Below, one piece after another: positions 6,431-16,174 of a stretch of DNA of 64,000 nt. The translations under genes were made by a program, and so were the position numbers. The stretch's first letter is position 1. Every line of letters starts with the position of its first letter. Source of the stretch: an uncultured Pseudomonadales bacterium. Its GTDB lineage: Bacteria > Patescibacteriota > Microgenomatia > UBA1400 > PJMF01. Location of the stretch: positions 48,863-112,862 of the forward strand of contig CAZUHV010000002.1 in the NCBI GenBank assembly GCA_964620965.1. Reading direction: 5' to 3'. The notes below the pieces were generated by a model. That model made no database searches and was not told the origin of the DNA. It saw nothing but the letters and a program-made list of their open reading frames with translations.

Positions 6431-7312
6431 ATGGCAAAAACAAAGCACCCCGATTTAGAAATTATTATTGTTAACTATAACAGTCAATTCTGGCTCAAGA
6501 AAACACTCTCTACATTAAAAGAGTTCTACTTAGACAAAACAAAGAAGTTTGTTGTTACAACTGTGGTTGATAATGCCTCAGAGGATGACTCTCTTAAAAT
6601 GATTGGAAGGGAGTTTCGTTGGGTTAACGTTATAAAACTGAAAGAAAATTTTGGCTTTGCTGTGGCAAATAACGCAGCACTTAGAGAAACAAAAGCAAAG
6701 TATGTTATGTTACTTAATTCTGATGTTGAGTTTACAGAAAAATCAAACCTTGATATTTTACTTCGGTTTTTAGATGATAAACCAAAAGTTGGTGTTATTA
6801 CTCCTAGAATTGAGTTTACTAACGGAGAAATAGACCCTGCGTGTCATAGGGGAGAACCAACAATTTGGGCCTCATTTACATACATGAGTGGACTAGAAAA
6901 TCTCTTGCCAACTAGTAAATGGTTTGCTGGGTATCATCAAACATATAAAAATTTCAGAAATATTCATACTATCGATGCATGTTCTGGTGCTGCAATGATA
7001 GTTCGAGGAGAACTTTTGGAAGACGTTGGACTTTTAGATGAACGCTTTTTTATGTATGCAGAAGATCTTGATTGGTGTAAAAGATTTCGAGAAGCTGGTA
7101 ATTTAGTTGTATATAACCCAGAAGTAATAGTCATCCACCACAAATATAAATCTGGCATTAAAAATACCTCTCAATCAATAGCAAGAAAAACTCGTAAGCA
7201 TTTTTACGACACCATGCTACAATACTATGACAAACACTACTTGGAAAGTTATCCAAGATTTGTTAGAAACATTATTAAGTACATTTTAGTAATAAAAAAA
7301 GGAGCACTATGA
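6431..7312 (+). CDS. glycosyltransferase family 2
   Basis: EIIIVNYNS...VVDNASEDDS and an NSD motif. GT2 fold. Confidence 0.75.
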   Translation: MAKTKHPDLEIIIVNYNSQFWLKKTLSTLKEFYLDKTKKFVVTTVVDNASEDDSLKMIGREFRWVNVIKLKENFGFAVANNAALRETKAKYVMLLNSDVEFTEKSNLDILLRFLDDKPKVGVITPRIEFTNGEIDPACHRGEPTIWASFTYMSGLENLLPTSKWFAGYHQTYKNFRNIHTIDACSGAAMIVRGELLEDVGLLDERFFMYAEDLDWCKRFREAGNLVVYNPEVIVIHHKYKSGIKNTSQSIARKTRKHFYDTMLQYYDKHYLESYPRFVRNIIKYILVIKKGAL

Positions 7313-7791
7313 ACTACCTTACTGAATTTAAAATTCAGCAACTTCGTACAAAAAATTTAACTGCTGCAGTTGAAACAGTAGCTATAACAATGGGAGCTGT
7401 AATGATCAACATGTTGGTCCCACAACTCTTACTTAAATATGTCTACACTGATCCAACAGCATTTGGTTTAGAAGCACCTGCAGTTTTCACATACCTTCCT
7501 TTAGTAACATATGCAGTTGCGCTTGGTTACTTCTTCTATGCAATGGTTGGAAACTTTGTTAGATGTAGAAAAGCAAACGCTTTAGAACAAGAATTTATTC
7601 TTACTGGCGGTTCTTGTGGTGACGGTTGTTGTGGAGATGGCTGTTGTTCTACTGAATCTCAAGATGAAGAAATCAGCGAAGATGAGTTAAAAGAACTCGA
7701 AAGAATCGTTGACGAAGCATTAAAACCATCAAAAAAATCAACAAAAGCTACTGCTAAAAAAACAGCAAAGAAGAAGACAGCTAAGAAATAA
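7309..7791 (+). CDS. small membrane protein with a Cys-rich GDGCC repeat and a lysine-rich C-terminal tail
   Basis: 160-aa ORF. ATGA overlap with the upstream GT2 gene, i.e. translational coupling. Two hydrophobic helices, then GGSCGDGCCGDGCC, an acidic segment and KKSTKATAKKTAKKKTAKK. A hairpin plus T-run terminator follows. Confidence 0.5.
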   Translation: MNYLTEFKIQQLRTKNLTAAVETVAITMGAVMINMLVPQLLLKYVYTDPTAFGLEAPAVFTYLPLVTYAVALGYFFYAMVGNFVRCRKANALEQEFILTGGSCGDGCCGDGCCSTESQDEEISEDELKELERIVDEALKPSKKSTKATAKKTAKKKTAKK

Positions 7792-7814
7792 TTTTGTAAA
7801 ATTTAGCATAAAAG

Positions 7815-7852
7815 TAAAAAACCGCCAGTTTTTAAAGCTGACGGTTTTTTTT
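7815..7852. terminator. bidirectional intrinsic terminator between convergent genes
   Basis: A-run, then CCGCCAG...CTGACGG hairpin (1 mismatch), then T8. It sits between the + gene ending at 7791 and the - gene ending at 7949. Confidence 0.55.
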
Positions 7853-7948
7853 GCTCATTTTACAATTTGTTGTGGATTTGGGCAGGCATTCTGCGTAAGC
7901 CACAACTCATATTTTAACAATTAAACGATTTAATTTTGATTCATTTTT

Positions 7949-10900
7949 TTATTGGCAACTACTCGGATAGACATAAATGTTATTCGAGTGTGCATAGTAG
8001 GGCGTATTCAGCGCCGTTACCCATATTTCGTACTGAAGACTACAATCCAAACCAGTCACTGTGTACGTTTCAGTATTTGCAGGCAAGTACACAAAGAAAG
8101 TATCGGCAGATGTAGTGGCTTTGTAGCCGAGCCGATACTCTAGTTCAATGTTTGAATTATCATTCCACACTACCGAAATAGAGGTTGTCGTTGAGGAAGT
8201 CTTATGAAGATCTGTTGGGGCATTAGGGGTTGGACCTTCAACTGGATCACAGGCGTTTGTGTTTGCACTTATAAAGTTGCTTTCCGAGTAATACAGATTG
8301 CCGTTATCCCAGTTTATCACGCGCACTACAAAATTGTATTGTGTTTCGCACTCTAAACCAGAAACTGTGTAGCTCTCAGTATTCGCAGCAACTGTGGGAT
8401 TAAACCATTCCCCACCATCTGCTTGATACCAGACTTCAAAATTATCCTCAATCGTGGAGTTATCGTCCCACGCGACGGTAATTGAGTTTTGGCCTACAGT
8501 TGTTACATGAAGGCCTGAGGGAGCGTTGGGAGTTGGGCCTTCTTGAGGAGGCGGCGAGCCACCAGGTTTTACTACCAAAGGGAGATATATTGCACCATCC
8601 CAAACAGGTTCAACATAACAACTTGGTGTAGAAACCGCAACCAAGTTTGGTGTAGCAGAGTCACCCCAGTTGTTGAAGGCCTTCACCAAGTAATGATAGT
8701 CTGTTCCACAAGGAAGGTCATTGAAAGTCCATGACGTTGTATAGCGGCTATTGATAGTCGCAACCAACGCATAGAAATCATCATCCACATGTTCGTAGAT
8801 ATGATACCCTTGCGTAGAACTATCTGTGCTTTGTTCCCACTCCACAGTGATTGACTGGTTGTCATTTTCCTCTGCCGACATGACAAATTGGCCTAAGGCC
8901 AAGTTGCCATTGTTATTTGAATACCCCCATGCGCTTTGTGGCATTTCGGGGGAGCCATCACAGTATTCGTTGTCGAACACTGCGAATGAGGAAATAACAG
9001 AATCGCCTTCGCCAACACTGATTGAAACACCGTTATTCAAGGCGTCATTTCTAAAGGTTGTCATGCTTGTTGAAAAACATTTATCTCCACCCTGATAGTT
9101 AGCGTGTTCCCAAACCTTAATTGACCAACCTGCCTTAATCCGCAAACTGGAAATTTGATCATTCCAGTTTGTTCCACACCAATTTGTTAAATCAGCGGCA
9201 GATGTTGGACCATGTCCACCGCAATTGGAAAACTGCACGCCTTCGTCTTGGTAGACAATGTAGTCATGAGTCTCAATAAGGGGATCTTGGCAAAGATCAA
9301 AGTTAAACACTTCTAGACCAACAATCTGATACGGCCAGCCAGCCGCATTTAGATTAGGCACGCTGCGATTAAAGCAGAATGCCTGATTGACGCTTTGCCG
9401 TTTGTCAATTCGGTACAAAACTACTGAGCTACCCGTTTTCAAACTCAGACTACCAGCATAGAAATACTGGTGGTCGTGAAAACCAGTGTAGTAGCTTGGA
9501 CCAGAGCCTTGATATCCAGTCCCGCTAAAGAATTGAACGTTAGGTGGTTGGGTTGGATTGGGTGGATCAGTAGGACAGACATCCCTGTTATACACGAAAA
9601 CTGACTGAATTTTCGTCTGCCAGTCATTGTGATCTTGTAGGTTAGGAACATTTGAGTTCCAACATTCACTCATACCCTGCATGTTGTCATCACGATAAGT
9701 GATAACCGACCAACCATTGGGGATCTGCATACTATAGCCTTCAGCATTTGGCTCGTTGTCGAGCCCTACATCAAAGGTATATAGCATCGCACCTTCATAG
9801 TTAGGGTATTGGAAGAGCTTAACAGCTCCACCACTACCAGTTTGAGGACCAGGAGGAAGAGGTTGTGTATCTGGAGAAGGCGGCGTATCAGGTGAATTTG
9901 TCGGGCAACTCCCAGCAATTATTTTTACACTCCCAACAAAATTAGCAATGCTAAAATGTGTCCCTGGGTAGAAATCTTTGTTCATATCCCACAGGTCACC
10001 AGAATAACAGGCAGACATTGTTGGAGGTGATTGTGGATTGTAAATAATCACACTATAACCTGGTTGTATGTCCAACGAATACGGGGTAAAATTACCAATA
10101 TTAATTTCTTGGCCGACTTGATTAGTCAACCAAATATTACCATTGCAATGTGTTTGGTCAAACAGACGCAAAAGCTCACTACTATGGTTGACTGATGAGT
10201 TATCTATACAATTCGAGTACGATGAAGGGTCAATGGTTCTGTAAATCCATGATTTGTAATTTGGGACATTTTGAAAACCCATTGTTTCCACATATCCACA
10301 GAAAGGAGTGCTTCCTGTAGAAATAATGGCTCCTAAAATGGTTTGACCATTTTTCACATATACAAGTGGACCACCACTGTCACCCGGACAAGTTGACCTC
10401 CCACTAATAACGGCTGCAACAAATTTATCTTGATTTTCGCTTTGAGTTAAATTATTGAAACTTATCTCAAGCAAATCATTTGATGTCTGAATCAGACCGA
10501 TATTGCCGTAACCCATTGCAACAAATTGTTCATGATTATCAATGTAAGTTGAAATATCGTCTGGCGTGCCAATTTGTATTGGTGGTCTTGAAGAAGGTCT
10601 AGATAACTTCCATAAAGCTAAATCAGTTTCCCCGGGGTTTAAATCTCCACCACTAAATGTAATTGGTTCACCATTTAGTTGAATTCTTTCAACATTTCCA
10701 TTCCAAATATGATCTCCACCAATTATGGCTGTATATACGGCATCACTACCATATGTGTAAAAGGCACCACCTGAAGTTGATCTCCAACAATGATGTGCTG
10801 TTAAAATCCAATCAGGATGAATTAAAACTCCGCCACAGAATTTATCATTTGTATAAGATTCATTTGTAGCAGTTAATTCAACCATCCAAGGATACTTACC

Positions 10901-11044
10901 GTTAGCATTTGTGCCATTATGAATTGCGCTAATCTTTTGTGTTGGATTTAAAACCAACATCAAAAATATCGAACAAAAAACTAGAAATACATGTTTAGTT
11001 TTCACTTTATTAACCTTTGTTGACAGTAAGCAATTTACTGTCAA
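7949..11044 (-). CDS. secreted trypsin-like (S1) serine protease with beta/gamma-crystallin-like repeats and three C-terminal fibronectin type III domains
   Basis: N-terminal signal peptide (KVNKVKTKH + VFLVFCSIFLMLVL). Catalytic His in LTAHHC and Ser in GDSGGPL. A Pro-rich linker, then Greek-key-like YxxxNYxG repeats, then three ~90-aa FN3-like repeats (PTPNAPSGLHVTTVGQNSITVAWDDNS... and PTPNAPTDLHKTSSTTTSISVVWNDNS...). Apparent TTG start at 11042-11044. Confidence 0.8.
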   Translation of the reverse strand: MTVNCLLSTKVNKVKTKHVFLVFCSIFLMLVLNPTQKISAIHNGTNANGKYPWMVELTATNESYTNDKFCGGVLIHPDWILTAHHCWRSTSGGAFYTYGSDAVYTAIIGGDHIWNGNVERIQLNGEPITFSGGDLNPGETDLALWKLSRPSSRPPIQIGTPDDISTYIDNHEQFVAMGYGNIGLIQTSNDLLEISFNNLTQSENQDKFVAAVISGRSTCPGDSGGPLVYVKNGQTILGAIISTGSTPFCGYVETMGFQNVPNYKSWIYRTIDPSSYSNCIDNSSVNHSSELLRLFDQTHCNGNIWLTNQVGQEINIGNFTPYSLDIQPGYSVIIYNPQSPPTMSACYSGDLWDMNKDFYPGTHFSIANFVGSVKIIAGSCPTNSPDTPPSPDTQPLPPGPQTGSGGAVKLFQYPNYEGAMLYTFDVGLDNEPNAEGYSMQIPNGWSVITYRDDNMQGMSECWNSNVPNLQDHNDWQTKIQSVFVYNRDVCPTDPPNPTQPPNVQFFSGTGYQGSGPSYYTGFHDHQYFYAGSLSLKTGSSVVLYRIDKRQSVNQAFCFNRSVPNLNAAGWPYQIVGLEVFNFDLCQDPLIETHDYIVYQDEGVQFSNCGGHGPTSAADLTNWCGTNWNDQISSLRIKAGWSIKVWEHANYQGGDKCFSTSMTTFRNDALNNGVSISVGEGDSVISSFAVFDNEYCDGSPEMPQSAWGYSNNNGNLALGQFVMSAEENDNQSITVEWEQSTDSSTQGYHIYEHVDDDFYALVATINSRYTTSWTFNDLPCGTDYHYLVKAFNNWGDSATPNLVAVSTPSCYVEPVWDGAIYLPLVVKPGGSPPPQEGPTPNAPSGLHVTTVGQNSITVAWDDNSTIEDNFEVWYQADGGEWFNPTVAANTESYTVSGLECETQYNFVVRVINWDNGNLYYSESNFISANTNACDPVEGPTPNAPTDLHKTSSTTTSISVVWNDNSNIELEYRLGYKATTSADTFFVYLPANTETYTVTGLDCSLQYEIWVTALNTPYYAHSNNIYVYPSSCQ

Positions 11045-11174
11045 CGATAAAAAAATCGTTTAATTGTTAATGAGCAATCTTTGTTTTTAAGACAAAGACC
11101 TATATTATAATAAATTTTGATATTTTAGTCAAGAAAATTGGTTAAAATACAAAAAATAATGATACAATATTTGT

Positions 11175-11786
11175 ATGGCAAAAAAATCAAAAATTAAAAA
11201 ACAACATATTAAAGTTATAATGTTACTCACTATTGTAGTAACTGTTTTAGCGATTTATTTTGGTCCTCTTTCTAAACCAAAAAAAGAGGTTTCGCAAAAA
11301 AATAGTTTTCAAAATTCAAACGCTGCACAAACATACAGTGGTACATATTTTTCTCTTAAGACTCCAGATAATTAGTATTTTGGTTCAGACATAAACGATG
11401 ACTATGAATGGATTAGAATATCTAGACAACCAGAAAAAAACAATGACAATATTGATGTGTCTAACATAGAAATTGTAGCAAGAAAAATACAAAATAATGA
11501 AACAATTAGCTCAAGAATTTCAGAATTGAACAGGGCAAAAAAAGAATATGAAGTAAATAAATCAGGGTCACTTGAAGATATTGAAAAAATTGAATTCAAA
11601 GGTCCAGAAGCCGTCAGTTATGTAATTCATATTAATATACCAAACGAAGAAATATCTGAAACAAGATCAGTTTCTGTCATTAAAAATGATATCATTTATT
11701 TATTGCGTTTAATATCATACGGAGAAAGTTTAGATCAATTATCAGAAGTTATAACTGAAAATTCTCTAATTTTCGACAATGTATGA
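11175..11786 (+). pseudogene. member of the MAKKS-anchored paralog family, interrupted by a single in-frame TAG (11373-11375)
   Basis: The six-frame ORFs 11175-11375 and 11457-11786 are in the same frame and separated only by one TAG. The N-terminus MAKKSKIKKQHIKVIMLLTIVVTVLAIYF matches the intact paralogs at 13164 and 13955. The C-terminal part (IIYLLRLISYGESLDQLSEVI) aligns with the paralog C-terminus (IVYEIEWILTAKNMNNLENII). Confidence 0.5.
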
Positions 11787-11806
11787 GACTCATTCCAGTT
11801 TACTAA

Positions 11807-12004
11807 ATGATAAAAAAAAATTTATTAGTAATTATTTTTATTGCAATATTAGTTAGTACTTTAGCAATTTTTGTTAAACCAAAATCAGTTAAAAATGAAG
11901 TTTTGACTGATCAATCTATTATTTCAGTTAATAAAGAAAAGACATTTGCAGAATTATCAATGGAAAAAGTTACTCAGAATGAAGACCGATATTATATAAT
12001 ATAA
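11807..12004 (+). pseudogene. 5' gene fragment (65 codons) of the paralog at 13955-14647
   Basis: An 85-bp stretch (11819-11903) is identical to 13985-14069, and similarity continues for about 190 bp. The ORF stops early and has no family -10 box upstream. Confidence 0.45.
11819..11903. repeat. 85-bp perfect direct repeat (copy 1) of 13985-14069
   Basis: Base-by-base comparison of the N-terminal coding sequence (aatttattagtaattatttttattgcaatattagttagtactttagcaatttttgttaaaccaaaatcagttaaaaatgaagttt). Confidence 0.8.
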
Positions 12005-12055
12005 AGACAATCATATCAAGTGAATAAGTGAATAAATGTTTTTAGTAAAGCTAAA

Positions 12056-12556
12056 TTATTTTTTTTTAGAAAGATAACTTTTTGTAAAGATAAAAGTAGC
12101 AATAAATAATATGATAGTATGTAGAACTACAACAGTAAAATTATAATCTGAAAAACTATACTTGGTTAAAAAATGAAAAGTATTCAAATTCTTAGGAGTT
12201 GACGTGAAATAAGACAAAATAGAAATAAATAAAGCAGCAGTGAACAATTTGTAAAAATTTTGTTCTATGAATTTTAATTTTAAAAGAATATTAAAAAATC
12301 CAAAAACTAATACCAACTGAAGAAGTACAACAAGATAAATATTTAAAGTGTCTGAATAGTAATAATAGCCATAATCATATAAAAAAACCGGTTGAGTAAG
12401 ACTATAATGAAAAATAAACATTGTAAACACTCTGAATAATAGTTCATTAATTATTGAGAAAATAAATGTACTAACTAAAATTGATAAAGTATTATTTTTT
12501 TCCATATATTTATCATTGTACCAAAAATTATCATTCAAATATAGAAGATTATTCAT
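12056..12556 (-). CDS. polytopic membrane protein (4-5 TM), island paralog 1
   Basis: 166-aa ORF, strongly hydrophobic and AT-rich. Paralogous to 12628-13113, with the same length class, TM pattern and C-terminal ...FIFTKSY / ...FYFFMNKK. Confidence 0.5.
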   Translation of the reverse strand: MNNLLYLNDNFWYNDKYMEKNNTLSILVSTFIFSIINELLFRVFTMFIFHYSLTQPVFLYDYGYYYYSDTLNIYLVVLLQLVLVFGFFNILLKLKFIEQNFYKLFTAALFISILSYFTSTPKNLNTFHFLTKYSFSDYNFTVVVLHTIILFIATFIFTKSYLSKKK

Positions 12557-12627
12557 TCAATAGCAACTTTTAACCATTCGATAAAAAGATATTTAAATCA
12601 ATTGCAACCTAAAAGATAACGGTAATA

Positions 12628-13113
12628 TTATTTATCATTCTTTTTATTCATAAAAAAATAAAAAGCGAAAAATATTATTAAGACATGAACAACTATTACA
12701 AAGTATGTGATAAAAAATGGTGCAAAGCCAAAAAACAATGTCTCAAAAAAATTTATTTTATAATACGGAGTTGCTGTACCATAAGAAATTATTGAAAGAA
12801 TTGTTGATGCAATGAATATTTGATAGATTTCCCCTTTTTGTTTTATGATTTTTACCAAAATTAAAAAAACAATTATGAAAAATACAAATTGAATAAATAT
12901 AAAGATTGAAAATGGAACATTCGCAAGATTAAAATATAAACGACCATAAAGGCTCTGTGAATAAAAACCAATATCAGGAATTAATGATTCGTAATAATTG
13001 GCAGCATAATAATTCGCAACAACGCGTAAATAATATTCATTCAATAATGATATAAAAAAAGCAATTAGTGCTAAAAAAAATTTTTTAACAAAAGTAAAAT
13101 CATTAGTTTTCAT
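12628..13113 (-). CDS. polytopic membrane protein (4-5 TM), island paralog 2
   Basis: 161-aa ORF. Paralog of 12056-12556. Divergent from the + strand family member at 13164. Confidence 0.5.
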   Translation of the reverse strand: MKTNDFTFVKKFFLALIAFFISLLNEYYLRVVANYYAANYYESLIPDIGFYSQSLYGRLYFNLANVPFSIFIFIQFVFFIIVFLILVKIIKQKGEIYQIFIASTILSIISYGTATPYYKINFFETLFFGFAPFFITYFVIVVHVLIIFFAFYFFMNKKNDK

Positions 13114-13163
13114 ACATGAATAATTATATCAATATCTAACTGAATGAATGTTATAATTTTTAT

Positions 13164-13904
13164 ATGGCAAAGAAATCAATAATTAAAAAACAACATATAA
13201 ATATTATTGTTGTCTTAGCAGTAATACTCACAGGTATAACAATATTTGGAAAGCAATACTTCTCAAAACTGCAATACAATACAAGATTCCATACTTGTAT
13301 TAATCAAGATGGCTCTACTTTTGAAACCACTGAACCATGTGAAAACTATTTACAAAAGGAAGAAACTTCAAATACTACCGTTAGCTTAGATCCTGATAAA
13401 CCAGATTTAGTTACCTTTCAAGCAGGATATTTTGCTGTAAAATATCCAAATAATTGGAATTATGTTGGTCATGATGGTGGTTTAGGAAATTTATTTGAAT
13501 ATCTACAAATAACTGATGTACAAGTCGAAGAAATGTATGATGGAAATCCAAATCTTCCGGCAATAATTTCCATTCAAGCAAATAAAAAAGGATTTTTCGG
13601 TGATTTTATTGGGAATGCTCATTATACGGGAAAATCTCTTGATGAATATATCAAAGATACTCTAAAAGAATTGGGGAACAATTACAAATCAAGAAGAGTT
13701 GATGGAACATCAGGCTGGTTAGTTGAAGAACCATCAGCTGATTGTTGTAAAATAAATATGTATCAATTAGTAATACATAATGACATATTCTATAATATTT
13801 CTTTAAATGTAAATGCATCAAATATGAAGGAGCTAGACGAAAAATCAAAAAAATATAGAAATGATTTTGATACAGTTCTTGATAACTTTAAATTTAATGA
13901 CTAG
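13164..13904 (+). CDS. signal-anchored (type II) surface protein, MAKKS family, with a variable C-terminal domain containing a CC pair
   Basis: MAKKSIIKKQHI + one TM helix, then a 200-aa hydrophilic domain. TATAAT sits 6 nt upstream of the ATG. Confidence 0.6.
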   Translation: MAKKSIIKKQHINIIVVLAVILTGITIFGKQYFSKLQYNTRFHTCINQDGSTFETTEPCENYLQKEETSNTTVSLDPDKPDLVTFQAGYFAVKYPNNWNYVGHDGGLGNLFEYLQITDVQVEEMYDGNPNLPAIISIQANKKGFFGDFIGNAHYTGKSLDEYIKDTLKELGNNYKSRRVDGTSGWLVEEPSADCCKINMYQLVIHNDIFYNISLNVNASNMKELDEKSKKYRNDFDTVLDNFKFND

Positions 13905-13954
13905 AGGTTAAGCATTTAATGAATTTATGACTTATTCTTGGTTACAATAGCTAT

Positions 13955-14647
13955 ATGGCAAAAAAATCAATAATGAAAAAACAAAATTTATTAGTAATTA
14001 TTTTTATTGCAATATTAGTTAGTACTTTAGCAATTTTTGTTAAACCAAAATCAGTTAAAAATGAAGTTTCGGTTGATCACACTACTGTTTCAGTTGATAA
14101 AGGAAAGACTTATGCAGAATTATCAATGGAAAAAGTTTCTCAGAATAAAGACGGAACTAGTACATATAATGGAGATTATTTTTCAACAACTTATCCAGAA
14201 AATTGGTATAAATGGTTTTTTGGTAGGGGAGTAAGTCTTGAAAACTTCCAAGTAAATTCGTTTTCTGAGGATAAAGTAGATGATATCTATGCAGAAGGTT
14301 CTTTCATAACTATAAATGTTGAAACTAAGGATTATAGACCCGTTTCAACATTAGAGGGGAAAATTGATTCTATAGAAGAATTAAAGAAGAATGCAGGTGA
14401 AAATACTAATGTAACATATAAAGTTGGACAATTTAAGTCAACACAAGCGGTTTACTCAGAAATTAAATCAAGTTCACATGGTTCAAAAAATCCAAGTTAT
14501 ATTAACACAATTTGGTTAATTAAAAGTGATATTGTCTATGAAATTGAATGGATATTAACTGCAAAAAACATGAACAATCTAGAAAATATAATATCTAGAG
14601 ATAAACTTGTTCATAATCAAATTGTTAATTCATTTGAATTTAAGTAG
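13955..14647 (+). CDS. signal-anchored (type II) surface protein, MAKKS family, with a divergent C-terminal domain
   Basis: MAKKSIMKKQNLLVIIFIAILVSTLAIFV TM anchor. TACAAT sits 6 nt upstream of the ATG. The C-terminal domain is unrelated in sequence to that of 13164. Confidence 0.6.
   Translation: MAKKSIMKKQNLLVIIFIAILVSTLAIFVKPKSVKNEVSVDHTTVSVDKGKTYAELSMEKVSQNKDGTSTYNGDYFSTTYPENWYKWFFGRGVSLENFQVNSFSEDKVDDIYAEGSFITINVETKDYRPVSTLEGKIDSIEELKKNAGENTNVTYKVGQFKSTQAVYSEIKSSSHGSKNPSYINTIWLIKSDIVYEIEWILTAKNMNNLENIISRDKLVHNQIVNSFEFK
13985..14069. repeat. 85-bp perfect direct repeat (copy 2) of 11819-11903
   Basis: See copy 1 at 11819-11903. Confidence 0.8.
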
Positions 14648-14687
14648 AGAGTCGAACATCAATTCCAATTTTGCTATAATCAGAAGT

Positions 14688-15041
14688 ATGAATATTTTGG
14701 ATTCAATTACATTTTTTTATCATCTTTATGGAGTACTTGTTTTGCTTTTTCTCTTCATATTTTTTGTTGTTTTAACATTTGTAGGGCTCAAGACAAAAAG
14801 AAGAGTAATATTTTTCCCTTCATTATTGATCGTAGTTATTTCCTTACTAATTATGTTTTTTGGTAGAAAATGTTGGTCGAGTGGGTGGGGTGGATTGTCA
14901 GGAATTGGTGATCAATGTACATGTAATGGCTTAGTTGTTAAATTTTATGTACCAAGCCCATTGTTATCGTATCAGTACACATGTTTTGGTATTGTTGAGG
15001 AGCCCGCTGAAATTTTTTCCTCAAGTAAATTTTACAGATAA
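14688..15041 (+). CDS. small two-TM membrane protein with a Cys-containing C-terminal tail
   Basis: ORF from the ATG at 14688 (MNILDS...). Extended -10 TGcTATAAT at 14672-14680, 7 nt upstream. Two hydrophobic helices, then CWSSGWGGLSGIGDQCTCNG...YTCFG. Confidence 0.35.
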   Translation: MNILDSITFFYHLYGVLVLLFLFIFFVVLTFVGLKTKRRVIFFPSLLIVVISLLIMFFGRKCWSSGWGGLSGIGDQCTCNGLVVKFYVPSPLLSYQYTCFGIVEEPAEIFSSSKFYR

Positions 15042-15076
15042 ACAAAGTATTACTTTATCTATAGTATAATGCATAT

Positions 15077-16174
15077 ATGAGAATCGGAATTGATGCTCGG
15101 TTATCAGGCGCTCAACACGCAGGAATCGGCAGATATACACAAAACTTAATTTTAGAATTGCTTAAAAAAAACAAAACCACAACGTATGTTTTGTTTTTCT
15201 ACACTCAAGAACAAGCAGAAGCAGTTTTGGGAACAGAAATTTCAAATAAAAAAGTTGAAATTGTTATTACACCCGTTCGTCATTACACAGTGACAGAACA
15301 ACTCAAGCTTCCAAAACTTTTCAAAGCACAAAAATTAGACTTACTGCATGTACCTCACTTTAATATTCCCATTTTTTATAAAGGTAAATTAATCATTACA
15401 ATTCACGACCTTTTATGGCACGAATACAAGGGTGGTTCTGTTACTACATTAAACCCGGTTATGTATTTCTTAAAATACTTGTTCTATAGATTAGTAACTA
15501 GAATTGCAGTTTACAAAGCAGAAAAAATTATTGTGCCTGCAGAAACTATTAAAAATACTGTTACTAAATTCTATCCAAAAACAGAAGAAAAAATTACAGT
15601 GACAAAAGAAGGTGCATATATTGTTGATCCCAAAAAACTTAAAAACTTACCTCAACTTAAAAACACACTTTTGTATGTTGGCTCACTCTATCCACATAAA
15701 AACTTAAAACTTATTTTGCAAGCATTACCATCACTCCCAAAATATAAACTTTTGATTGCCGGTTCAAGAAACGTCTTTCAAGATAAAGTGAGAGAGTATG
15801 TAAAATATAAACAAATTGAAGAACAAGTAGAATTTCTTGGATATGTCCCAGATGAAGACCTTGCAAAACTTTACCAACAAGTCACTGCACTTGTACAGCC
15901 ATCATTTTCCGAAGGATTTGGCCTAACTGGAGTAGAAGCAATGTCCTTTGGAACTTCTGTACTAGCTTCAGATATTCCTATTTTTAAAGAAATTTACCAA
16001 GATGTAGCCTTTTATTTCAGCCCTCATTCTATTGCATCTTTTATTCAAGCAGTTCATGCCCTTGAACAAAAATCAGATGCACAAAATAAAGAAGGGTTGC
16101 AACTTGCGAAAAACTATTCTTGGGAAAAAATGGCAGAGCAAACAATAGAGTTATATAAAGAAATTTTAAAATAA
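15077..16174 (+). CDS. glycosyltransferase family 4
   Basis: C-terminal EGFGLTGVEAMSFGTSVLASDIPIFKE motif, the GT4 signature. Confidence 0.75.
   Translation: MRIGIDARLSGAQHAGIGRYTQNLILELLKKNKTTTYVLFFYTQEQAEAVLGTEISNKKVEIVITPVRHYTVTEQLKLPKLFKAQKLDLLHVPHFNIPIFYKGKLIITIHDLLWHEYKGGSVTTLNPVMYFLKYLFYRLVTRIAVYKAEKIIVPAETIKNTVTKFYPKTEEKITVTKEGAYIVDPKKLKNLPQLKNTLLYVGSLYPHKNLKLILQALPSLPKYKLLIAGSRNVFQDKVREYVKYKQIEEQVEFLGYVPDEDLAKLYQQVTALVQPSFSEGFGLTGVEAMSFGTSVLASDIPIFKEIYQDVAFYFSPHSIASFIQAVHALEQKSDAQNKEGLQLAKNYSWEKMAEQTIELYKEILK

Follow-up and report, generated by a model that had tools for sequence, protein, structure and literature searches.

From an uncultured Patescibacteria (Paceibacteria-like) bacterium we analysed a 64-kb stretch of DNA, called the window throughout, that carries a lineage-specific island with a family of membrane-anchored proteins (A, B and C), two small membrane proteins (M1 and M2) and a 65-codon gene fragment, which shares an exact direct repeat with the intact gene B. 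Its features, in window coordinates, are as follows.

7792 to 15076, no strand assigned: lineage-specific island of ~7.3 kb (protease, A, fragment, M1, M2, C, B and orf117)
11163 to 11207, plus strand: 5' module of gene A, equivalent to that of B (repeat family and alignment)
11175 to 11786, plus strand: family member A, with an in-frame TAG at 11373-11375 where its paralogs carry Trp (YPxNW)
11806 to 11987, plus strand: first copy of the full homology block, 91% identical to 13972-14153
11807 to 12004, plus strand: the fragment, a truncated B-type paralog (65-codon ORF) equal to B residues 7-66, with membrane helix and linker, ectodomain absent
11817 to 11903, plus strand: first copy of the exact repeat, encoding the membrane helix and linker start of the truncated paralog (exact-match extension; spanned by contig L001)
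12056 to 12556, minus strand: M1, small polytopic membrane protein of 166 aa, paralog of M2, GC 21% (ORF)
12628 to 13113, minus strand: M2, small polytopic membrane protein of 161 aa (ORF)
13152 to 13196, plus strand: 5' module of gene C, equivalent to that of B (repeat family and alignment)
13164 to 13904, plus strand: family member C, 246 aa, between the repeats
13943 to 13987, plus strand: conserved 5' module of B, comprising TACAAT, 6 nt, ATG and the first 33 coding nt (repeat family and alignment)
13955 to 14647, plus strand: intact gene B, 230 aa, N-terminal membrane anchor and predicted PsbP/Mog1-fold ectodomain
13983 to 14069, plus strand: second copy of the exact repeat, codons 10-38 of B (exact-match extension; Logan contig ends)

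The AlphaFold2 model of B, with a pLDDT of 85 overall and above 90 at residues 60-230, consists of a helix (residues 10-28), a disordered stretch (32-49) and a fold that begins at about residue 57. A Foldseek search of this model against PDB placed PsbP at the top (E 2e-6 to 1e-5), followed by Mog1, DcrB and LpqN, and the B ectodomain is predicted to adopt an alpha/beta PsbP-type fold. The Pfam model PsbP_2 (PF18933) matched 10 of the 27 aligned sequences at E <= 0.01 (best 2.7e-7); among the window proteins, C stayed below the threshold (E 0.07, 13.5 bits against a cut-off of 27) and B gave no match. The family is rare, with 28 relatives among 1.84 billion representative proteins. Its paralogs share ~25% protein identity, and their first 33 coding nucleotides are 79-97% identical. 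The counts returned by a promoter and terminator scan were at chance level in this AT-rich DNA.

Gene A is split by its in-frame TAG also in contigs L001 and L055. An alternative genetic code was considered for this stop and rejected, since it is a TAG where the paralogs have Trp and the other genes read normally in table 11; a nonsense mutation is the simpler reading. M1 and M2 belong to no family in Pfam, NCBIfam or PADLOC, and a single outside homolog was detected among 5.8 billion proteins, namely P0035 of strain L058. Their AlphaFold2 model (pLDDT 54) was too low in confidence for use; their N-E-x3-R and C-terminal His motifs may resemble those of CPBP proteases.

Extent and assembly support of the direct repeat

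Exact-match extension revealed a maximal direct repeat of 87 bp (11817-11903 = 13983-14069, offset 2166), which upholds and lengthens the 85-bp identity (11819-11903 = 13985-14069) given in a preliminary description of this DNA. It is the only pair of exact repeats of at least 20 nt within the window, and in 64 kb of the same composition the chance expectation for an 87-mer repeat is ~4e-40. The surrounding ungapped homology covers 11806-11987 and 13972-14153, with 16 mismatches in 182 nt (91%). On the 3' side of the exact tract the fragment and window B are 83% identical over 84 nt, rather than the earlier estimate of about 90% over the next ~100 bp, and homology to window B ends near 11987. 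As described before, the two copies bracket the antisense membrane-protein genes (12056-12556 and 12628-13113) and the family member at 13164-13904.

We compared the window with independent Logan assemblies (k=31) of other sequencing runs. The contigs matched it at 100% or 99.9% identity and ended exactly 30 nt, that is k-1, inside a repeat copy: L055 ends at 11846, L051 covers 11874-14012, L052 ends at 14012 and L129 starts at 14040. Contig L001 (10404-12260) crosses copy 1 with unique sequence at either side. The path from A through the repeat to M1, together with three of the four repeat edges, was reproduced at 100% in contigs from four other sequencing runs, and the A-to-repeat edge at 99.9% (L055). 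Assemblies of five runs gave an identical sequence for the repeat region of the window strain, and the fragment-carrying contigs represent essentially one strain (99.9-100% identical). The breaks at k-1 nt, which are the expectation for a true two-copy repeat, and the read-through of copy 1 by L001 thus show that the repeat did not arise in assembly. A false second copy made by a collapsed or chimeric join, for which we found only the general fact that metagenome-assembled genomes can hold such errors, is extremely improbable given these contigs and the differing flanks of the two copies. Shortened identity or collapsed assembly, either of which the preliminary description saw as fatal to the repeat, is contradicted by an identity that proved longer and by independent contigs that reproduce the edges of both copies.

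The offset of 2166 equals 3 x 722, so the repeats are in frame and the product of a deletion between them would be a complete 224-aa B ORF. RecA-type recombination between the repeats could remove M1, M2 and C, after which A would be followed by a complete B. Such a deletion is a plausible future event, neither observed nor programmed, and no deletion junction was seen among the assemblies compared. The segment had earlier been called poised for deletion or inversion; the first is plausible, and the second is impossible because the repeats are direct, which permits deletion or duplication/excision only.

The truncated copy and its mosaic relation to gene B

Homology bears out the earlier view that the fragment is a paralogous version of the start of the coding sequence of intact B (13955), and that it is promoter-less, since no TAYAAT box of its own is present at 11807-12004. 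It starts 20 nt past the stop codon of gene A. In other strains, operon-internal family members begin at the equivalent 'MIKK' position, 11-14 nt past the preceding gene or overlapping it; given this shared start, the 5' end of the fragment is probably not a duplication breakpoint. The real truncation is at the 3' end only, at ~11987-12004. A full-length counterpart, which we call B*, was not found in any strain compared, so that a formerly complete B* gene is putative. We infer that the remnant is co-transcribed with gene A and functionless.

The distribution of differences along the fragment is strongly uneven: 0 of 87 positions differ from window B within the tract and 14 of 84 downstream of it (Fisher p = 2.6e-5). 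Compared with the B allele of strain L002, the downstream part differs at ~10 of 84 positions, and is thus roughly equidistant from both B alleles. In the three-way comparison, which has a small count of informative sites (22), all five variable sites of the tract set L002 B apart; an assignment of all 5 to the L002 branch has a probability of 0.0048. Past the tract, a run of fragment-specific changes is followed by a run of window-B-specific ones (runs test p = 0.0026). Synonymous sites taken alone, with 0/20 differing in the tract and 1/16 downstream, do not distinguish the two parts. An identity tract bounded by divergent sequence with a different phylogenetic signal is the pattern by which gene conversion is recognised, and this mosaic, in which the tract equals window B and the downstream part is equidistant, fits short-patch recombination (gene conversion) better than a plain recent copying of B. 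The preliminary description had left the choice between a recent partial duplication and gene conversion; recombination is the right kind of process, and a simple recent copy of the present B misfits the downstream counts.

Such a copy, in which ~200 bp of the present B (codons 7 to ~66) were placed at the junction of A and M1, is the strongest alternative, although we consider it rather unlikely. It would explain the identity by little elapsed time and constraint on the helix, with a linker that changed fast in both copies; in a variant, a foreign allele later took the place of the B ectodomain, the breakpoint being near 14069. The very low synonymous divergence between fragment and B (1 of ~37 sites, dS 0.03) speaks for recency, and an ectodomain dS of 0.45 against a background of 0.09 indicates that allelic replacement occurs at this locus. 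Yet the part of the fragment beyond the tract is no closer to window B than to L002 B, the branch-specific changes come in blocks, and relative distances differ between tract and flank (p = 0.005). Moreover, the left edge of the fragment falls on a start codon natural to operon-internal members, not on an arbitrary breakpoint, and additional events would be required anyway.

A different reading retains the 65-codon ORF as a functional small membrane protein, made of a helix and a short extracytoplasmic tail and co-transcribed with A, whose helix is under selection that keeps the 87 bp identical. The open frame, an ATG where operon-internal family members start, the intact helix and the annotation of the 65-aa ORF as a protein by the NCBI and Logan gene callers are all compatible with it. 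We nevertheless judge it improbable: the upstream gene A has the in-frame TAG in every sample, so the sub-operon is apparently decaying, and selection on the protein leaves the identity at all 20 synonymous tract sites unexplained. The same tract in L002 B accommodates 2 synonymous and 3 non-synonymous changes, the sequence outside the tract has 11 non-synonymous against 1 synonymous changes, so no purifying selection acts there, and a related strain is without the fragment.

Strain variation and proposed history of the island

In at least 13 related loci, the gene that comes 36-245 bp after the 7309-7791 homolog is a homolog of the GT4 gene (window gene 15077-16174), and none of 120 related loci encodes any of the island proteins. 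The island is thus inserted between two genes that relatives carry side by side, within a conserved glycan-synthesis (surface-glycan) cluster. Its edges have no repeats of at least 12 nt, and no transposase or integrase was found. PADLOC gave nothing on the island beyond a weak protease-domain match, and a defence system was rejected on that result.

Comparison of strains, proposed in the preliminary description, uncovered different gene contents. Strain L002, whose C is 95% identical at the nucleotide level, has the order C-D-B-GT; where it is aligned to the window, the matches overlap over the first 42 nt of B (13955-13996), a pattern that fits a crossover at this site. In L058, which comes from the sample that also yielded L002, only one M gene follows the protease, and A, the fragment and M1 are all missing; L056/L057 carry protease, E, C' and a next member, with no M genes between family members. 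Between strains, the B ectodomain reaches a dS of 0.45, compared with 0.09 for the flanking genes and B codons 1-38, which points to imported or old alleles; the most variable part of B (14375-14494) is 65-68% identical. A search of JGI metagenomes for other strains gave 0 matches to an exact 41-mer of the repeat, a scan of the same metagenomes with the GT4 protein found relatives at <=73% identity only, all without the island, and a literature search returned nothing specific. Gene content and alleles at the island turn over much faster than the genome background.

We regard the repeat as probably a dead-end remnant within a fast-recombining tandem gene family and not a device. The island carries very divergent paralogs (A, C and B, with D and E in other strains), each encoding an N-terminal membrane anchor and a predicted PsbP/Mog1-fold extracytoplasmic domain, behind a near-identical 5' module that comprises a TAYAAT box (in promoter-bearing members), the ATG, ~33 coding nt and the membrane helix. 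Recombination between these modules, and with alleles of other strains, may repeatedly add, delete and re-assort the genes. The 65-codon ORF would be the leftover of a second B-type gene that was formerly operon-internal behind A and was cut short where it meets the M1/M2 block on the minus strand, losing the 3' two-thirds and with them all of the folded domain. Later, short-patch recombination, most likely intragenomic gene conversion in either direction, would have made the helix-coding 87 bp identical in remnant and B, and the adjacent linker-coding sequence would retain older mosaic differences. Both this order of events and gene conversion as the origin of the tract are inferred.

The repeat alone is a routine footprint of paralog recombination, of use mainly as an annotation note on a pseudogene fragment and a possible deletion substrate. 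A strain-variable island with a rare PsbP-fold family in a surface-glycan cluster is modestly interesting for understanding uncultured Patescibacteria. A locus of this type is expected to be involved in how the cell surface interacts with hosts or phages.

Comparison with known systems

Target-site duplications of transposons and IS elements are as a rule 2-14 bp long and flank a transposase-bearing element with terminal inverted repeats; this origin was rejected, because the repeat is 87-182 bp of coding sequence and the bracketed genes have no transposase match, and no convincing terminal inverted repeats were found around the bracketed segment. DGR template/variable repeat pairs resemble the locus in having two repeats of ~100-180 bp with scattered mismatches, one of them in a surface-protein gene. 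Here, however, the repeat occupies the 5' end of the gene, where a DGR would have it at the 3' end, no reverse transcriptase is adjacent (none of the scanned island ORFs, namely the protease, the C-terminal part of A, the fragment, M1, M2, C, B and orf117, gave a match), and the mismatches are not adenine-specific, with A in the fragment copy at 8/16 and in the B copy at 4/16; a DGR was therefore rejected.

Pseudogene cassettes drive antigenic variation in Neisseria pilE/pilS, Borrelia vlsE, Anaplasma msp2 and Mycoplasma genitalium MgPa/MgPar. It is very unlikely, in our estimate, that the 5' module is a recombination handle by which PsbP-fold surface-protein bodies are swapped, silenced and re-activated, with the fragment as a stored partial cassette exchanging with B; if true, the candidate phyla radiation would have here a rudimentary system of surface variation by gene conversion. 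Even less credible is a programmed, antigenic-variation-like gene-conversion system that varies surface protein B with the fragment as its silent donor or acceptor cassette. The locus does share with the pseudogene-cassette systems a partial, promoter-less copy near an expressed paralog, a conserved segment followed by a differing one and signs of short-patch recombination, the B ectodomain is hypervariable between strains, and a life in attachment to host cells is generally assumed for such Patescibacteria. However, where antigenic variation draws on several silent cassettes, the window holds one partial copy and no further one, hence no repertoire, and this copy covers residues 7-66 (helix and linker), not the hypervariable 14375-14494. 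No adjacent recombinase, reverse transcriptase or special sequence was found, all samples of the strain carry the same sequence, and no switching within a population was seen among the assemblies.

As a protein, B matches the PsbP_2 (PF18933)/PsbP-Mog1 fold group (DcrB, LpqN, Mtc28 and DUF1795/Eag) in the predicted fold of its ectodomain; the window proteins differ from that group by falling below the Pfam threshold and by an N-terminal membrane anchor with no lipobox. As a locus, it can be set beside the tandem bacterial surface or secreted protein families of hypervariable 'flexible' islands, in which truncated paralogs and concerted evolution by ectopic gene conversion occur. Although a very rare PsbP/Mog1-fold branch in Patescibacteria is involved here, and no mobile-element genes, the likeness extends to a tandem array whose paralogs are divergent yet homogenised in places, genes gained or lost from strain to strain by recombination in conserved 5' segments, a pseudogene (A) next to a truncated copy, atypical GC and a location in a cell-envelope glycan cluster.

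The repeat and its gene context

The preliminary description had reported an 85-bp perfect direct repeat (11819-11903 = 13985-14069). Sequence comparison confirmed that the two stretches are identical, within a maximal exact match of 87 bp (11817-11903 = 13983-14069; offset 2166). This tract belongs to an ungapped homology of 182 nt (11806-11987 / 13972-14153; 16 mismatches, 91%), although identity over the 84 nt following it is 83% rather than the ~90% reported, and the similarity of the fragment to gene B stops near 11987. No other exact repeat of at least 20 nt occurs in the 64-kb window, and the chance expectation of an 87-mer repeat is ~4e-40. ORFs, called with genetic code table 11, place copy 1 in a truncated B-type fragment and copy 2 in the intact gene B.

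Features around the repeat
11175-11786: gene A, family member with an in-frame TAG at 11373-11375
11807-12004: fragment, 65 codons
12056-12556, minus strand: M1, polytopic membrane protein
12628-13113, minus strand: M2, polytopic membrane protein
13164-13904: gene C, family member
13955-14647: gene B, intact family member
14688-15041: orf117, small membrane protein
15077-16174: GT4 glycosyltransferase

A, C and B share 19-26% identity, and their family is very rare: a 5.8-billion-protein database holds seven members, each encoded here or in a strain variant of the locus, and 1.84 billion cluster representatives include 28 relatives. An AlphaFold2 model of B (pLDDT 85; alignment of 27 sequences, 10 of them matched by Pfam PsbP_2) predicts a membrane helix (10-28), a disordered linker (32-49) and an alpha/beta domain from ~57; a Foldseek search of this model against PDB retrieved PsbP (E 2e-6) and also Mog1, DcrB, LpqN, Mtc28 and Eag chaperones. 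The fragment matches residues 7-66 of B and therefore encodes the anchor and linker, with the folded domain entirely absent. In gene A, the TAG falls at the conserved Trp (TGG) of the paralogs (TPDN followed by the stop vs YPENW / YPNNW), and contigs L001 and L055, from other samples, show the gene split in the same way; the TAG is probably a fixed nonsense mutation and A a pseudogene. Each of the tandem genes M1 and M2 encodes a small membrane protein, predicted to have about four helices. They are paralogs (35% identity over 71 aa; GC 21-23%) with no detectable family, and 5.8 billion proteins contain just one homolog, encoded by the single M gene on contig L058 of a related strain.

We checked the assembly against Logan contigs (k=31) from other sequencing runs, retrieved by exact-protein look-ups. 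L001 (SRR32005136) equals window 10404-12260 and spans copy 1 together with unique sequence flanking it on either side. From SRR11577119, the 37-kb contig L055 (99.89% identical) ends at 11846 and L052 ends at 14012; from SRR10580904, L051 equals 11874-14012 and L129 starts at 14040. Each break lies exactly 30 nt (k-1) within a repeat copy, the signature of a real repeat node, two-in and two-out, in the de Bruijn graph, and all four edges are seen: A to repeat, C to repeat, repeat to the M1 side, and repeat to the rest of B. Breaks and edges match a true two-copy repeat, ruling out an assembly artefact such as the collapse of a single copy, the caveat raised earlier.

Origin of the identity tract

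Between the fragment and window B, 0/87 positions differ in the tract and 14/84 just downstream (Fisher p = 2.6e-5). We compared both with B of another strain (contig L002, SRR11524805). All five variable sites within the tract set L002 B apart from the identical pair (probability of 5/5 on the L002 branch, 0.0048), the next seven are fragment-specific and the following six window-B-specific, with one exception each (runs test, p = 0.0026). Beyond the tract, all three sequences are approximately equidistant (14, 10 and 10 differences), so the fragment is not merely a young copy of the present gene B, one of the two origins proposed earlier. Short-patch recombination probably produced the tract, with gene conversion inside the genome as its simplest form. 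As a caveat, synonymous differences are scarce in both the tract (0/20 sites) and the downstream region (1/16), and a very recent duplication with fast amino-acid change in the linker is a less likely alternative. A DGR, transposon target duplication, a defence system and an alternative genetic code were considered and rejected.

Recombination, and not point mutation alone, appears to have shaped the locus, and synonymous divergence between the window and L002 is further evidence: dS is 0.092 in GT4, 0.097 in C and 0.09 in B codons 1-38 vs 0.45 in B codons 39-230, pointing to an old or imported ectodomain allele. This ectodomain (14070-14647 vs L002 1498-2075) is most divergent at 14375-14494 (65-68% nt identity).

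Conserved gene starts

Among paralogs, identity reaches 79-97% over the first 33 coding nt, against ~25% at the protein level otherwise. A TAYAAT box stands 6 nt 5' of the ATG in A, C, B and in D and E, members from other strains (box plus 5' module: window 11163-11207, 13152-13196 and 13943-13987; L002 751-800; L056 1562-1610). The pattern looks like leaderless transcripts combined with a homogenised 5' module serving as a recombination site. No such box precedes the fragment or L002 B, in agreement with the earlier view of the fragment as promoter-less. Operon-internal members (C' in L056, the next gene in L057, the internal Met of L002 B) start at 'MIKK', which lies 11-14 nt past the gene before it or overlaps that gene's stop. 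Because the fragment starts at this same position, 20 nt past A, its 5' end is probably a native gene start and its 3' end the sole breakpoint. In L057 (1219-1232), the C' stop overlaps the start of the next member (TTCAATGATTAAAAAACAA: ...FND, stop / MIKKQ...), a case of a gene's 3' end imitating the conserved 5' module of its successor.

A strain-variable island

The flanking genes belong to a conserved surface-glycan cluster (hexapeptide transferase, GT2, Wzy-like, PMT-like, GT4, GT2; later GT4, GT4, ManC). Among related Patescibacteria/Paceibacteria loci, at least 13 place the GT4 homolog within 36-245 bp after that of 7309-7791, and 0/120 related loci encode the protease, family members, M1/M2 or orf117. 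We therefore read ~7792-15076 (7.3 kb; protease, A, fragment, M1, M2, C, B, orf117) as an insertion specific to this lineage. It carries no integrase, and no repeats of at least 12 nt flank it. GC is 42% in the protease gene, 21-29% in other island parts and 34-35% in the flanks. The product of the protease gene (7949-11044, minus strand) is a large secreted-type protein (~1000-1030 aa) that combines a trypsin-like protease domain with beta/gamma-crystallin-like segments and three fn3 domains. The gene's high GC (45% in the 8-10 kb bin vs 34% for the genome) suggests a foreign origin. Between strains the protein is strongly diverged (47% aa identity in L058).

The strain comparison suggested earlier revealed that L002, L058 and L056/L057 differ from the window in gene content. 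L002 (C 95% nt, B 85% nt / 77% aa, GT4 97.5%) has the order C, D, B, GT4, where D is a new 201-aa member. Its alignments to the window overlap at the start of B, over 42 nt (13955-13996), so a crossover in the common 5' module would explain the presence or absence of D. In L058, from the same sample, the protease is directly followed by a single M gene (47-529), with A, the fragment and M1 all absent; identity to M2 is 93% nt along the contig's initial 183 nt (46 bp 5' of the gene and the first ~137 coding nt) and 44% aa over the whole protein. In L056/L057 (SRR22541073/4), the protease is followed by E (250 aa), C' (78% aa) and one more family member, and M genes are absent. The B-GT4 spacer, 412 nt in the window (14648-15059, including orf117) vs an unrelated 172 nt in L002 (2076-2247), appears to be another replaced segment, at the island edge.

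The 87 identical bases exceed the minimal efficient length for RecA-dependent recombination. As the repeats are direct, the inversion once envisaged is impossible. With an offset of 3 x 722, a crossover in the tract is predicted to place a complete 224-aa B gene right behind A, with M1, M2 and C lost, resembling the arrangements of other strains; the assembled contigs compared contained no such deletion junction. We read the feature as a truncated paralog whose identity tract derives from recombination, lying in a strain-variable island of PsbP-fold membrane-anchored proteins; the preliminary interpretation is partly supported. As such, it offers a fresh example, in a Patescibacteria genome, of well-known genome dynamics.
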